From a virus (lineage: Duplodnaviria > Heunggongvirae > Uroviricota > Caudoviricetes): a stretch of DNA of 37,322 nt. The DNA lies in the IMG/VR virus record IMGVR_UViG_3300028361_000020, positions 64,001-101,322 of that record; one strand, given 5' to 3'. The position numbers and the translations under genes are program-made. Positions 17,712 through 22,255 of this stretch are shown here, piece by piece; the stretch's first letter is position 1; each line of letters starts with the position of its first letter. The notes under the pieces were generated by a model, which saw only the letters and a program-made list of their open reading frames with translations, was not told the origin of the DNA and did not search any database.

Positions 17712-18263
17712 TCAAAGCTTGCAGGATTCGCAATCTGAGTCGTCATCTGCATCAACTTGCTCGAGTTCTGGCAAGTCTTCTTCACCTAGCATCTTGTTAA
17801 CGTCAAGTTCTCCTTGACCATCGTTTGTTTGGAAATAATAAAGCTGCTTGCCGCCATATTTGTAGAACATCACCATGTGTTGCAGCATTACACTCATTGG
17901 AATCTTTTCATCTTCGTAAAACTCAGGATTGTAGCTGGTGTTAACACTGATGCCTTGGTCTATGTACTTTTGTAGCACAGACATAATTTTTAGATATCCT
18001 TCGGGCGACTTTTGTGTCCAGAGCAGATCGTACTTGTTTTTAAGGCGCTTGTATTCCGGTACTACTTGCTTTAGTACTCCGTGCTTGCTTTGCTTTACAC
18101 TAATAAATGCACGCGGCGGCTCGATGCCATTTGTTGCATTTGCAATTTGCGCACTAGTGTTATGACTAATGCATCCATTTGACAAGGTATAAGTTTCGTT
18201 GTCAGTTGAAACATCCCAAGTGTGTTCTGTTCCTGCGTCTCTTGTAATACGTTTAATTTTCAT
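17712..18263 (-). CDS. nrdA: NrdA fragment 4: 35-aa split-intein C-half + C-terminal NrdA extein (148 aa)
   Basis: ...TWDVST.NETYTLSNGCISHN | TSAQIANATNGIEPPR...KQLYY...CESCKL; start re-called to ATG 18263. Confidence 0.95.
   Translation of the reverse strand: MKIKRITRDAGTEHTWDVSTDNETYTLSNGCISHNTSAQIANATNGIEPPRAFISVKQSKHGVLKQVVPEYKRLKNKYDLLWTQKSPEGYLKIMSVLQKYIDQGISVNTSYNPEFYEDEKIPMSVMLQHMVMFYKYGGKQLYYFQTNDGQGELDVNKMLGEEDLPELEQVDADDDSDCESCKL
18159..18263 (-). mobile_element. split intein B, C-terminal half (IntC, Thr at +1)
   Basis: Block F (TWDVST) and block G (SHN). Confidence 0.88.
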
Positions 18264-18412
18264 TTTAATAATTCCTCTTTTGTAATTGAACATTTTCCTT
18301 GTTTTGACACGTTATCTTCCCAGGGAATAAATTCTAAATTTTGCAAGCTTCCTAATAGCGCAGGATTAATTCCTTCAATAAATCCTCGAGATATTGAAAA
18401 TTTATGATCTAG
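18260..18412 (-). pseudogene. C-terminal relic of an HNH-type homing endonuclease (50 codons)
   Basis: LDHKFSISRGF.EGI.P..LG.L.NL..IPW..N.SK..KC; its TGA overlaps the IntC ATG; no start codon. Confidence 0.75.
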
Positions 18413-19366
18413 TCATTTATCATTAACGCTAACAATATCGTCATCTTCTAATAAATCTTTAACTTCAATCCATTCTTTTATGTTATTTCGTAATACAAGA
18501 AGTTTGTGATTATTAGTAAATTTATATACTGATCCGTCTTCTAATTCAATTTCTGTAACAGATTGAGGGCCATTATAATAACATTCATATGCTATACTAT
18601 CTGACAATTCAACTGGTTTAAGGAATGGAAATCTCTGACCTATCATGAATTTTTCGTGAACAGTGTTAATATCAATTTTTCCGTAATCTTGAATAACTTC
18701 GGCGAGCGTTACAACTGTTCCATCTTTTAGCCTCATTTCATTTGCCAAGCTTTGACATTCGGCGGGCATAAGGGCCATTAGTGTAGAGTTTCTTATGCCC
18801 GTGTCTTTAAGCTGCGTTCTCAGTCCTTGCCAGTCCATACGTTCAACATGTGGAATTAGTTGATCCAAATCTTTCTTGTATGTCTGGTTAGGGGTAATAC
18901 CGTGTCCGTACTTAGTTTCCATGTTTCCGGTAGGCGCGCCAAATTCTGTTGCTAGGTCTGCGCTGGCTTTGATGAGATAGAAACTCCAGGCTTCTGCCCA
19001 TTCGTCAATTAATGCAAGTCCGTCGCTGTCAATGTCTTGGTAATTGAGATTGTTTTTAGCAAGCCAATATGCAAAGTTGATAATACCAACTCCAAGTGGT
19101 CGACGCTTGTCGGTTGATAGTTGTGCAGCTAGAATTGGATAATGTTGATAGCTTAGTAGTGCGTCCAGTCCACGTACTGCAAGGCGACAAACTCTTTCAA
19201 AATCAGCAGGAGTCTTAATATTGCCCCAATTAATTGCTGAGAGCGTACACAAGCTGATAGCAGCACCGTCATAGTCTTCTACCATTTCGTCTACATATAT
19301 GTATTCTTCATCTTCTCGAATATTGTTTTCGTTTTCTACTACTTCATATAACCAATTATTTTCCAT
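18413..19366 (-). CDS. nrdA: NrdA fragment 3: acidic 33-aa leader + NrdA extein (~170 aa) + 114-aa split-intein N-half
   Basis: ISLCTLSAINWG...RRPLGVGIINFAY...RNSTLMALMPAE | CQSL...FTNNH; AAGGA Shine-Dalgarno. Confidence 0.95.
   Translation of the reverse strand: MENNWLYEVVENENNIREDEEYIYVDEMVEDYDGAAISLCTLSAINWGNIKTPADFERVCRLAVRGLDALLSYQHYPILAAQLSTDKRRPLGVGIINFAYWLAKNNLNYQDIDSDGLALIDEWAEAWSFYLIKASADLATEFGAPTGNMETKYGHGITPNQTYKKDLDQLIPHVERMDWQGLRTQLKDTGIRNSTLMALMPAECQSLANEMRLKDGTVVTLAEVIQDYGKIDINTVHEKFMIGQRFPFLKPVELSDSIAYECYYNGPQSVTEIELEDGSVYKFTNNHKLLVLRNNIKEWIEVKDLLEDDDIVSVNDK
18416..18757 (-). mobile_element. split intein B, N-terminal half (IntN)
   Basis: Cys1 after MPAE, block B TNNH, WIEVKDLLEDDDI end motif. 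Confidence 0.85.
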
Positions 19367-19655
19367 TGTTATTCCTTGCTACCTTATGTACTTTTTTGCC
19401 ATTAAATTTCTCTTTGTCTAATCGTAAAATGCCATCTACTGACTTTTTATATTCTAAATATTCATTATATTTGTTTTTGGGAATTCTTATTTTACGTCGG
19501 TGAGCGCCGTCATTGAGATCTTTCAGCGGCTTGGTGGGTAAAGTAATTTCGGCACAATTGTGTACTAGTATTCCGTTTGCAAAGAAATTTTCATTGCCCA
19601 ACACTGTGATATCGTACACTGCTTCTCTTTTATTTTGTCTTGTAATTTTTAGCAT
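19356..19655 (-). CDS. nrdA: NrdA fragment 2: 33-aa split-intein C-half + 16-aa catalytic extein CAEITLPTKPLKDLND + basic 50-aa tail
   Basis: VYDITV.GNENFFANGILVHN | CAEITLPTKPL matches the E. coli C439-x-E441 segment. Confidence 0.93.
   Translation of the reverse strand: MLKITRQNKREAVYDITVLGNENFFANGILVHNCAEITLPTKPLKDLNDGAHRRKIRIPKNKYNEYLEYKKSVDGILRLDKEKFNGKKVHKVARNNNGK
19557..19655 (-). mobile_element. split intein A, C-terminal half (IntC, Cys at +1)
   Basis: Blocks F/G: VYDITV, NFFANGILVHN. Confidence 0.93.
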
Positions 19656-19719
19656 TTATTTTTTTTCCTTGAGTATATTGGAGATTTTTTGTTTATATTC
19701 GATACGGAGATTAATTTAG

Positions 19720-21783
19720 TTACGATATTAAAAGTCTGTCAGTTTCCGTTAATTCTTGCGCTTCTACATACCCTCGGTTCAATGTATAAATTTTATGCTC
19801 AGGTGTGCATTCTATAGTCTTTCCGGAATCTTCGTCAAAGATACTAATAACTTCTGCATCCGGGTTGGTCTTTGCAAATGCTTCAACCTTTTTATACTCT
19901 GTTTTATTATCAAGTATATTGTAAGATTTAACTAACAGATCTTCGTCCTGAACCATTAACGTTCCGATTTCGTCGAGATTAATAATTAATTTTTCATTAT
20001 TGAATATTACTTCAATCTTAGTGTCGCCTGTTAGACATAAGTTACTCTGGCGGATAGGAGCAAACTCCGGAATAAAACTTCCATGGTCGTTTGCATTGTC
20101 AACATTCTGCAGATAGATTCTACCTGTGGACTTGCGCTCTTCCATAAACTTACTGAATAGTTCGCTTGCTTTAACAGTTTTCTTGCGTAGTTTTGTAGTG
20201 CGTTCTGCTTTTTCATATAGTTCGCGGAACTTGTCTTGGTCTGCAAAAAATGCTTCATACAACCCGGGTACGTCGCTGGGTGAGAATAGTGTTATGTTGC
20301 CGCCTGTGATTAATCTTTCGTACATCAGCTTGTTGAACTGTACTCCGTAGTCCATGTGACGGATACGGTTTTCTTCAGTTCCTTTGTTGTTTTTCAACAC
20401 CAGCAATTCTTCTGCTTCTAGATGCCATATTGGATAATAGATAGTAGCGGCGCCGCCGCGTACACCACCTTGACTGTTGTGAGTTAACACCATTGAGTCA
20501 GACATCAACGAACTTGCAAAAAACGTATTGGTGTCTTCCACTGTAATGTCAACGTATCCTGTTGGATTTTGTTGACCGACTGTAATCGAATATAGATATA
20601 CAGTGCCATTTTCTGAAATAATATTGTTGTATTCTGTAAGTTCCTGAGGATACTTTTGTGTTACGACATTGTTGTCTAGAATCATAATTGGATGATTTAT
20701 ACTACAATTTATCACTGTTCCGTTTGTAAATTCCAGCCTAACCTGCTGATCTTCTGTTACCAGCGTATCCCATTTGTTAATAACTTTTCGGTATACAATC
20801 TTGCCGTCTTCGTAGGATTTAATTTTCATTCCAGTAGTAAGATCTGCAATGCGGATTTTTTTTGTTTCTAGCCCGTCTTCGTTAATTATTTCAACAATTG
20901 TATCCGGAGTTAGACAACAACTTTTAACTGCTGACTGGAAATGCTTGTAGAATGGAATGATACCAGTGTGATATGCATCGCCTTTGCGTATTGGCGAGTT
21001 AATGGCGCGGATGTTCCCTGCGCCAATGCCGATGCCTGCTTTTTGACTCACATACTTGACAATCGACGCAGAAGTAGCGCTGATGCTGTCAAGGCTGTCA
21101 TCTGTTTCAATAAGCACACAACTACTGAATTGACGTTGTGGTGTGCGCACACCTGCCATAACTGGCGTAGGAAGACTGATGTCGTGGAGGCTGATTGCGT
21201 CGTAGTATTCTTTAATCCACGTTAATCGAGTTTCTTTTGGATACGACGAGAACAAGGTAGCAGCAATCAATGCATAACACATTTGTGGGGTTTCAAAGAT
21301 TTCTCCAGTGACTCTGTTCTGCACCAAGTACTTGCCTCTAAGCTGCTCCATTGCGACATAAGTTAACTGTTCGTCACGGTCGTGTTTGATAAAACTGTCT
21401 ATTTTATCCCATTCGTCGTTGGTGTAAGTATCTTTTAATTCTGGATCATAGTAGCCGCGGGCGGTGTTCAAGTCCACCAATTTCTTAATATGAAAAGGAT
21501 CAAACCCGCCGTATACTTCTTTTCGCAACCCGTAGTTGATGAGTCTTCCTCCAACATATTGATAGTTTGGCGTTTCTTCTGTGATCAGATCTGCTGCTGC
21601 TTTGATCAATGTTTCTTGTATTTCTTTGCTTTTGATGCCATTGAAAAACTCCAGCTTGCTTTTAATTTCAACTTCGCTTGGACTAACTCCTGTTATGCCT
21701 TCGCATGCGTAAAATGCAACTTTGTGCAACTTTTCGATGTCCAGTGGCTCCAACGAACCACTCCTCTTAGTGACTTGAATCAT
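19720..21783 (-). CDS. nrdA: NrdA fragment 1 (687 aa): ATP-cone + N-terminal catalytic part, with a cis mini-intein and a C-terminal split-intein N-half
   Basis: VTKRSG ATP cone, QFSSCVLI, SQKAGIGI, KSC|SQGGVRGGAAT, IRQSNL|C; start re-called to ATG 21783. Confidence 0.97.
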   Translation of the reverse strand: MIQVTKRSGSLEPLDIEKLHKVAFYACEGITGVSPSEVEIKSKLEFFNGIKSKEIQETLIKAAADLITEETPNYQYVGGRLINYGLRKEVYGGFDPFHIKKLVDLNTARGYYDPELKDTYTNDEWDKIDSFIKHDRDEQLTYVAMEQLRGKYLVQNRVTGEIFETPQMCYALIAATLFSSYPKETRLTWIKEYYDAISLHDISLPTPVMAGVRTPQRQFSSCVLIETDDSLDSISATSASIVKYVSQKAGIGIGAGNIRAINSPIRKGDAYHTGIIPFYKHFQSAVKSCCLTPDTIVEIINEDGLETKKIRIADLTTGMKIKSYEDGKIVYRKVINKWDTLVTEDQQVRLEFTNGTVINCSINHPIMILDNNVVTQKYPQELTEYNNIISENGTVYLYSITVGQQNPTGYVDITVEDTNTFFASSLMSDSMVLTHNSQGGVRGGAATIYYPIWHLEAEELLVLKNNKGTEENRIRHMDYGVQFNKLMYERLITGGNITLFSPSDVPGLYEAFFADQDKFRELYEKAERTTKLRKKTVKASELFSKFMEERKSTGRIYLQNVDNANDHGSFIPEFAPIRQSNLCLTGDTKIEVIFNNEKLIINLDEIGTLMVQDEDLLVKSYNILDNKTEYKKVEAFAKTNPDAEVISIFDEDSGKTIECTPEHKIYTLNRGYVEAQELTETDRLLIS
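19723..20037 (-). mobile_element. split intein A, N-terminal half (IntN, 105 aa)
   Basis: CLTGDT block A, CTPEHKIYTLNRGYV block B, typical of phage NrdA/NrdJ split inteins. Confidence 0.95.
20476..20916 (-). mobile_element. cis mini-intein, 147 aa, no endonuclease, inserted at KSC|SQGG
   Basis: CLTPDT block A, CSINH block B, YVDITV block F, LTHN + Ser(+1). Confidence 0.93.
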
Positions 21784-21829
21784 TCTTTTTCCTTTAAATG
21801 TGTACGGTAACTGTAAAACAGCTAGGTAT

Positions 21830-22255
21830 TTATTGTAGTTTTTGTGGAGTAAATTGTTTTTCAACTGTGATATGCACAGGTATTTGTTGTCTGTCTACTG
21901 CACAATCTGCATGGTAACCAATTACCATGTCGTCAACATACAGTAGATATTTTATCTCCGACTTTGCTCTATCTGCACAGATATATATCTCAAAAACTGA
22001 TTCCGAAAAGCGATTAGTTAACTGCAAAGTGTAGCATATTCCCAGAATAATGGAAAACTCGCAGTATACATTTTCGTAAACCAGTTCCCATGCGTTTGGC
22101 CATAACTTGTCGGCATACGGATCACAAGATATGCCGACCAGCGGTGCAGTATTGTAGAAGTCAACGGCGTCCTGAATAGGATACGCCGATGTCTCCAGCG
22201 TACTTCTAAAAGCTGACCATTCACGAAGACGGTCAACGTAATCTTTTTCAAACAT
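21830..22255 (-). CDS. hypothetical phage protein, 141 aa
   Basis: ORF coupled to the upstream stop. Confidence 0.75.
   Translation of the reverse strand: MFEKDYVDRLREWSAFRSTLETSAYPIQDAVDFYNTAPLVGISCDPYADKLWPNAWELVYENVYCEFSIILGICYTLQLTNRFSESVFEIYICADRAKSEIKYLLYVDDMVIGYHADCAVDRQQIPVHITVEKQFTPQKLQ

Follow-up and report, generated by a model that had tools for sequence, protein, structure and literature searches.

The ribonucleotide reductase (RNR) gene nrdA is broken into pieces in a stretch of 37,322 nucleotides (nt) of DNA from a lake phage (Caudoviricetes; positions 64,001 to 101,322 of IMG/VR record IMGVR_UViG_3300028361_000020). We refer to this whole stretch as the window; it is part of a 101-kb contig with a completeness estimate of 27%. 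Four consecutive open reading frames (ORFs), here called fragments 1-4 and all located on the minus strand, make up the gene (Table 1). We found that the break between fragments 2 and 3 is a genuine split and not an assembly slip. The split is, in our judgement, likely the work of a homing-endonuclease cassette of the type of MobE in Aeromonas phage Aeh1, whose endonuclease gene has since been deleted, and the basic tail on fragment 2 and the acidic head on fragment 3 are likely needed by the enzyme, given their homology with the Aeh1 tails. The history of the gene can be read in its relatives; what protein the split gives, and what its tails do, is what we infer.

Concerning the break itself, fragment 2 continues beyond the NrdA sequence CAEITLPTKPLKDLND with a 50-residue tail containing 16 Lys/Arg and 5 Asp/Glu, and fragment 3 opens with a 33-residue head, containing 13 Asp/Glu and a single Arg, before the NrdA motif GAAISLCTL. 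An earlier note on this DNA, made by a model from the letters and ORF translations, had given the same counts, and our recount agreed with it for both extensions. The stop codon of fragment 2 (19356-19358) lies beyond the ATG of fragment 3 (19364-19366), which gives an 11-nt overlap of the two ORFs, and a Shine-Dalgarno sequence for fragment 3, AAGGA (19373-19377), is placed 6 nt before this ATG; both features, also pointed out in the earlier note, were reproduced on recomputation. An in-frame TAG is present 4 codons upstream of the fragment 3 ATG, and stop codons are found in all three frames between the tail core and the head. The two ORFs are separate, each with its own start signals, and neither an intron nor an intein is present at the break. 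Neither tail nor head gave a Pfam match, and Pfam gave no intein signal at the fragment 2/3 break, where the junction residues are also wrong for splicing, in agreement with the claim that no intein motif sits here. Intein pieces were recognized by Pfam at the fragment 1/2 and 3/4 junctions, and three inteins (one contiguous and two split) are present elsewhere in this nrdA.

When an unsplit close relative was aligned end to end with E. coli R1 (R1 residues 439-623), the break mapped to D454/E455-G457, within the loop between the equivalents of C439 and C462. The 16-residue extein of fragment 2, on which the thiyl-radical cysteine had been said to arrive, indeed corresponds to C439-D454 in this alignment, and the extein of fragment 3 restarts at about G457, five residues ahead of C462.

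The conserved tail comprises only the first 39 residues (19392-19508; 13 Lys/Arg and 5 Asp/Glu, net +8). In the relatives L012 and L015, a run of seven A residues (A7) leads to a fragment 2 that ends GKKST*. The run has six residues (A6) in the window, and the ORF continues with VHKVARNNNGK*, using the former frame and the stop codon of an endonuclease gene. The last 11 residues do not belong to the conserved tail, because the one-base-shorter A-run makes the ORF read into the remnant of this endonuclease gene. The 11-nt overlap and the count of 50 tail residues are therefore consequences of the A6 frameshift. The earlier description of the tail holds as a count of the present ORF, but not as a description of the conserved element, of which the last 11 residues are no part.

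The junction with A6 was letter-identical in four assemblies, three of which were compared over the full locus, with pairwise differences at 5-12 of 5954 nt. Further sequencing runs were compared as Logan contigs: the identical junction was present in contigs of run X11, which is not flagged as the source, and a contig from a salt lake (run X13, ~90% identical) was without the endonuclease but had A7. We also considered the single-base sequencing error that, according to the earlier note, might make fragments 2 and 3 one ORF. No single-base error in the A-run fuses them, because every frame stops between the tail core and the head. The repetition of the junction across assemblies, together with the relatives described below, bore out the view that this is a real, non-spliced split.

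Close relatives retain an endonuclease gene at the exact position of the break. In L012 (fragment 3 98% identical to that of the window) and L015 (84% identical), ORFs of 253 and 255 residues, respectively, are located between the tail ORF and the head ORF, with their 3' ends overlapping the start of the head ORF. Both display weak GIY-YIG matches, and residues 108-253 of the L012-type ORF align with residues 99-236 of Aeh1 MobE (37% identity, E 3e-20) up to the C-terminus. Other occupants were found between tail and head in the 210-kb contig L006 (a 294-residue NUMOD3 protein) and in one further contig (an HNH_3 gene). The window matches L012 at 98% DNA identity up to GGCAAAAAA-GTACATAAGGT, the usual stop of fragment 2. 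The match resumes at AAGGAAT..ATGGAAAAT, which corresponds to the last codons of the L012 endonuclease (…RNENGK*) where they overlap the start of the head ORF. This second BLASTN segment starts at the remnant and extends into fragment 3 with 83% identity. Relative to L012, the window lacks about 770 nt, which are the endonuclease gene. Between fragments 2 and 3, the window contains no free-standing endonuclease gene, only a 22-nt 3' remnant of about 7 codons, which supplies the AAGGA and the ATG of fragment 3 as well as the present stop codon of fragment 2. As the endonuclease is absent from the window and present in L012 and L015, the window is a derived, endonuclease-less form and not a full member of the Aeh1-type MobE cassette splits. 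The proposal that a splitting element had been lost was thus supported by the relatives that still carry the MobE-related gene and by the 3' end left in the window.

Similar remnants were found elsewhere. The nrdA of L008 consists of two genes without inteins or endonuclease, and the 60-nt gap between them encodes GLSMYKLNKLRKQ, the C-terminal motif of the L012-type endonuclease. A 120-nt gap in L010 encodes the C-terminus of the L006-type endonuclease, and in P0131 the tail runs straight into MIEAVSATDLSMYKLRKLKEAK, an endonuclease C-terminus. Judging from these 3'-end remnants, the endonuclease has been lost several times, and its 3' end, with the ribosome-binding site of the downstream gene, was kept each time.

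We then have to consider how widely the tail and head occur. A search with fragment 3 gave over 1100 homologues. Among the best 120 of these, about 45 begin with M..WLYE(I/V)V, followed by an acidic linker and (D/E)EY(V/I)Y(V/I)DE...ISLCTL, with identity to the window extending down to ~50%. The fragment 2 search revealed long-type tails of the form DGAHRRK(I/V)R(I/V)PKEKYQEYLEYKK..ILRLDKEKFNGK and also a shorter tail type, for example RRIKVKKADFEEFKQRI; other close relatives have an unbroken loop (…LNDLNDPDGEISLCTL). Nine tail/head pairs from the same contigs were examined. The tails carry net charges of +3 to +10 and the heads -8 to -14, and because all nine show the same polarity, the opposite charges are not a matter of chance. 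Lengths also go together in the nine pairs, long tails with long heads and short with short. In P0027 (L004/L005), represented by contigs from two independent samples, tail and head are fused in one ORF as a loop of ~80 residues, in which the two probably came together secondarily, once the endonuclease had been lost. When the fused insert was used in an exhaustive profile search, only 6 matches and no further fused ORFs resulted, and a tblastn search of the window extein plus tail against 50,697 phage records gave no match.

The ratio of nonsynonymous to synonymous substitution rates (dN/dS) was 0.09-0.17 for the tail core, 0.05-0.21 for the head and 0.02-0.14 for the adjoining extein, values that are rough, as synonymous sites are saturated in most pairs. 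Loci that lack the endonuclease, among them the two-gene, intein-free nrdA of L008, keep both tail and head. The two extensions, conserved in dozens of metagenomic phages, are under constraint at the protein level, also in the endonuclease-free lineages.

A maximum-likelihood tree of 109 sequences was constructed from the extein that follows the break downstream (170 residues). In this tree, split and unsplit forms were thoroughly mixed. Well-supported branches require the state to have changed 16 times or more, and in many sister pairs with good support one member is split and the other unsplit. From this mixing it follows that the tail-endonuclease-head unit moves between nrdA alleles, or that recombination with unsplit alleles removes it. 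P0027 was found nested among split and unsplit forms in this tree. We also observed an 11-nt direct repeat, ATGACGG(C/T)GCT, with codons for (N/Y)DGA; one copy is located where the tail starts (19503-19513, minus strand) and the other where the head ends (19262-19272, minus strand). The copies give the impression that part of the original NrdA loop was duplicated on either side of the insert, and recombination between them would restore an unbroken loop.

The corresponding arrangement in Aeh1, the RNR "genes-in-pieces" nrdA-a/mobE/nrdA-b (Friedrich et al. 2007, cited in PMC2677866), has been studied at the protein level (Crona et al. 2010/11, PMC3045599). After the split, NrdA-a holds C431, the equivalent of E. 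coli C439, NrdA-b holds C31, the equivalent of E. coli C462, and the tails are basic on NrdA-a (isoelectric point 10.4) and acidic on NrdA-b (isoelectric point 3.8). The tails are dispensable for the NrdA-a/NrdA-b heterodimer, but their deletion abolishes the dimer of heterodimers and activity, and NrdB binding in the presence of dATP becomes more than 100-fold weaker (PMC3045599). The earlier statement that the Aeh1 tails are needed to assemble the halves is thus incorrect for the heterodimer, and correct for the dimer of heterodimers, tight NrdB binding and activity.

For the window, we propose that a cassette consisting of basic-tail codons, an endonuclease gene and acidic-head codons was inserted into the NrdA loop between C439 and C462. 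The endonuclease gene would later have been deleted, its last ~7 codons surviving as the ribosome-binding site of fragment 3, and a one-base change in the A-run would have led the remnant to supply the stop codon of fragment 2. Intein A is expected to join fragments 1 and 2 and intein B fragments 3 and 4, and the cis intein presumably splices as well. The result would be two non-covalent chains that resemble NrdA-a and NrdA-b of Aeh1, one of ~500 residues ending in the basic tail and the other of ~350 residues starting with the acidic head. Fragment 3 would be translated from its own Shine-Dalgarno sequence, possibly coupled to termination of fragment 2. By homology with Aeh1, tail and head would be needed for an active dimer of heterodimers and for NrdB binding, and they most likely pack on each other and on the subunit interface via their opposite charges and aromatic strand-like motifs.

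In the conserved pattern of the two extensions, the tail contains a basic strand-like segment, KIRVP, and an amphipathic helix, and the head two aromatic strand-like motifs with an acidic linker between them. This pattern suggests the hypothesis of a small joint sheet/helix unit near the dimer interface, and the tails may act as the electrostatic clasp that the earlier note had proposed. AlphaFold2 prediction of the fused P0027 (extein plus insert), based on a 28-row alignment without separate tail rows, was confident for the NrdA part, with a predicted local distance difference test score below 50 for the insert; in the tail, just a short strand and a helix were predicted. A complex prediction of fragment 3 residues 1-203 with fragment 2 residues 34-99 scored 0.25 against a mark of 0.34, and we used it neither for nor against contact.

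Several points weigh against a MobE-type history with functional tails. Contact between tail and head is what we infer, and as the Aeh1 halves pair without their tails, a clasp between the halves may be the wrong picture. The direction of the change, loss rather than gain of the endonuclease, is read from the retained 3' codons. The window is also not a simple deletion derivative of L012, as it shares 98% of the DNA sequence with L012 upstream of the break, compared with 83% downstream of it. This step indicates that recombination was involved as well; downstream of the break, protein identity to L012 is 98% in spite of the 83% at the DNA level. To judge from these identities, recombination has left a sharp boundary at the break, where the endonuclease used to be, as expected for a homing site. 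In terms of likeness to Aeh1, tail and head gave different results. The Aeh1 tail scored 57 against the L010 tail and 46 against that of P0128, and none of 2000 shuffled versions of the Aeh1 tail reached 57 against the set, so the tail family is significantly similar to it. The long-type tail of the window is itself not significantly similar to the Aeh1 tail, however, and is linked to it via short-type intermediates. For the head, similarity to Aeh1 was marginal (p 0.066 against shuffles), a profile of the metagenomic heads failed to separate the Aeh1 head from shuffles (327/2000), and a tblastn search with the head reached Aeh1 only at E 0.1.

We considered whether the cassette left tail and head behind as neutral remnants, the chains assembling by the barrel interface alone. 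The heterodimerisation of tail-less Aeh1 halves (PMC3045599), the unstructured insert in the AlphaFold model of P0027 and the variation in tail length, with 11 frameshift-derived residues tolerated in the window, would agree with this. We nevertheless regard it as unlikely, given that dN/dS in tail and head (0.05-0.21) is like that of the enzyme core, that both extensions are kept in lineages without the endonuclease, and that tail deletions in Aeh1 abolish activity and dimerisation (PMC3045599). Another explanation is a split intein, degenerate or atypical, whose halves are the tail and the head and which here still ligates the chains; a degenerate intein was raised as a possible origin of the Aeh1 tails by Crona et al. 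(PMC3045599). Split inteins also have oppositely charged halves, and there are three other inteins in the gene. However, the tail begins with Gly-Ala-His and not Cys or Ser, the head ends with Tyr-Asp and not His-Asn and is followed by Gly, and with 83 residues together the two fall well under the size of a mini-intein, a HINT fold taking about 130 residues or more, and display no Pfam intein match. Peptides from Aeh1 furthermore show that the tails there are not processed (PMC3045599). Ligation by such an intein is highly improbable.

The possibility that fragments 2 and 3 are produced as one protein, through a +1 ribosomal frameshift or hop in the overlap, was also taken into account. The product would be an NrdA with a loop of ~80 residues such as that of P0027, the naturally fused ORF with homologous tail and head, and fragment 3 is indeed in the +1 frame relative to fragment 2, with GGA AAA TAA in the overlap. 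On the other hand, no recognised slippery motif is present at the junction, and fragment 3 has its own Shine-Dalgarno sequence and ATG. In relatives, the ORFs lie 60-120 nt or a whole endonuclease gene apart, so fusion is not a conserved route, and the A7 variant stops 30 nt earlier. We give this explanation very little weight. The least credible alternative is a sequencing or assembly artefact in a gene that is really continuous. It is true that the extension of fragment 2 hinges on a one-base homopolymer change, A6 versus A7, but A7 merely stops fragment 2 earlier, at a TAA. Fusion would require an indel within ~20 nt that contain no run longer than A4, among stops in all frames. The identical junction recurs in four assemblies and in contigs of another run, and dozens of diverged homologues share the start of fragment 3.

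The positions of the features are collected in Table 1.

Table 1. Features of the split nrdA locus in the window.
Feature	Position	Strand	Description
nrdA fragment 1	19720-21864	minus	ATP-cone, all-alpha domain, first barrel part, contiguous mini-intein, N-intein
nrdA fragment 2	19356-19655	minus	99 residues; 33-residue C-intein, then CAEITLPTKPLKDLND, then 50-residue tail
nrdA fragment 3	18413-19366	minus	317 residues; 33-residue acidic head, then GAAISLCTL
nrdA fragment 4	17712-18293	minus	
Split intein A, C-terminal half (fragment 2 residues 1-33)	19557..19655	minus	Pfam Intein_splicing residues 3-33; ends VHN, then Cys
16-residue NrdA extein CAEITLPTKPLKDLND	19509..19556	minus	E. coli R1 C439-D454; holds thiyl-radical Cys and E441
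Basic tail core GAHRRKIRIPKNKYNEYLEYKKSVDGILRLDKEKFNGKK	19392..19508	minus	39 residues, net +8; conserved in P0121-P0128, L008, L015
A-run (A6 in window, A7 in relatives)	19392..19397	minus	DNA alignment to L012 and L015
11-residue tail extension VHKVARNNNGK	19359..19391	minus	A6 frameshift product; RNNNGK* of window matches L012 endonuclease C-terminus RNENGK*
3' remnant of putative deleted MobE-like homing-endonuclease gene	19356..19377	minus	Matches last codons of L012 253-residue ORF
Acidic head of fragment 3 MENNWLYEVVENENNIREDEEYIYVDEMVEDYD	19268..19366	minus	33 residues, net -12
Fragment 3 NrdA extein	18758..19267	minus	About E. coli R1 G457-E623, including C462; Pfam Ribonuc_red_lgC
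Split intein B, N-terminal half (end of fragment 3)	18416..18757	minus	Weak Pfam Intein_splicing; begins with Cys after MPAE
Direct repeat, 11 nt, left copy ATGACGGCGCT (codons N-D-G-A), tail start	19503..19513	minus	Read from sequence
Direct repeat, 11 nt, right copy ATGACGGTGCT (codons Y-D-G-A), head end	19262..19272	minus	Read from sequence

Some further observations on the locus and its relatives were made. Fragment 2, too, is preceded by an AAGGA, located ~10 nt before the ATG of this fragment and behind an A-rich spacer (19656-19719, minus strand) in which the window and L012 display a single-A difference (A8 versus A7). In L012 (positions 2225-2258) and L015 (2210-2246), an inverted repeat brackets AGGAG/AAGGAG upstream of the endonuclease ATG, for example AATATATA-AGGAG-TATATATT. 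As far as the sequence goes, it recalls the Aeh1 hairpin that sequesters the mobE ribosome-binding site (PMC2677866). In L013 and L014 (the P0005 loci), whose loop is unbroken, extra ORFs of 281, 274/304 and 327 residues, one with DUF7487, are present between the nrdA pieces, and the number of pieces and their occupants vary greatly among near relatives. Klebsiella phage KP13-7 (L003; OP617745.1, 29952-38137) had been a candidate head match and was rejected, as its nrdA contains two split inteins only and an unbroken loop. In this cultured jumbo phage, the fractures of nrdA are at the same two split-intein sites, A and B, as in the window; between the intein halves lie a GIY-YIG gene and another gene that resembles an endonuclease, and most of the pieces are annotated as hypothetical proteins.

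The Aeh1 study described the tails as unique sequences without a database match and left their origin open (PMC3045599). In our analysis they belong to a conserved, widespread family under purifying selection, which moves among nrdA alleles, pairs with different types of nuclease and outlasts deletion of the endonuclease. A single studied example thereby becomes a family, with many natural sequence pairs and one fusion available for testing how the tails work, and this fits the idea of a cassette that brings its own antidote to gene fragmentation. We would tentatively go one step further, to a notion that we find attractive without holding it to be the likelier one: tail and head could together make up a repair module that is portable and self-complementing, accompanies homing endonucleases, stays indispensable after their loss and can be fused in cis, as in P0027. 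If so, the module would let an endonuclease cut the gene of an essential enzyme in two without killing the enzyme, the occupied, remnant, overlapping and fused forms would represent its life cycle, and the pair could find use as a small, naturally evolved tag for heterodimerisation. There is also a warning for annotation. Very small ORFs such as the 99-residue fragment 2, and short extensions of unusual charge at the junctions of split genes, would be functional parts of enzymes and not gene-calling noise.

Compared with Aeh1, the window concerns the same enzyme and the same C439-C462 loop, with a basic C-terminal tail upstream and an acidic N-terminal tail downstream that are related to those of Aeh1 (charges +8/+10 and -12). 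The endonuclease of close relatives shares the C-terminal domain of MobE, and the 3' end of its gene contains the start of the gene downstream. The window differs in that it has only the last codons of an endonuclease gene, and its tail ORF enters this remnant and overlaps the head ORF. The tail has 39+11 residues and the head 33, whereas those of Aeh1 have 32 and 25. In addition, the N-terminus of the relatives' endonuclease is GIY-YIG-like, in contrast to the HNH of Aeh1 MobE, and the chains of the window can form only after one cis intein and two split inteins have acted. The Aeh1 sequences were those of the GenBank record.

Cassettes of this kind are also found in T4-like coliphages. The MobE-type C-terminal domain matches endonucleases in about 29 T4-like coliphage records, and Escherichia phage e11/2 (vB_EcoM_112, NC_024125) has an nrdA/MobE/nrdA arrangement at the same site, with the tail QTRLIKIKKSDVAKF… and the head MNIDYEFVDEFYEDDEYTTIKV. 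This pair clearly belongs to one family with the metagenomic short-type pairs and connects them with Aeh1. Heads of the e11/2 type are present in 35 cultured-phage records. The endonuclease is present in all three coliphage records examined (e11/2, fPS-90 and SH-2), which have short-type tails and no inteins. These cassettes are represented by sequence records, and we found no literature dedicated to them.

The flanking breaks of the window, at intein A (located at the thiyl-radical Cys) and intein B, are of the same kind as the fractured genes with split inteins and free-standing endonucleases of Dassa et al. (2009, PMC2677866), and relatives carry endonuclease genes between the split-intein halves. 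The fragment 2/3 break differs from these in having no intein halves, and cannot splice. In T4, the topoisomerase genes gp39/gp60 are likewise split in association with an endonuclease (mobA), and the tail-like, oppositely charged extensions of this essential enzyme were proposed to aid assembly (PMC3045599); enzyme and element are different, and the likeness is one of description. The kind of arrangement found in the window is therefore already known, from Aeh1 as the one studied case and from sequence records. What is new here is the endonuclease-less form with overlapping ORFs, set between two split inteins.

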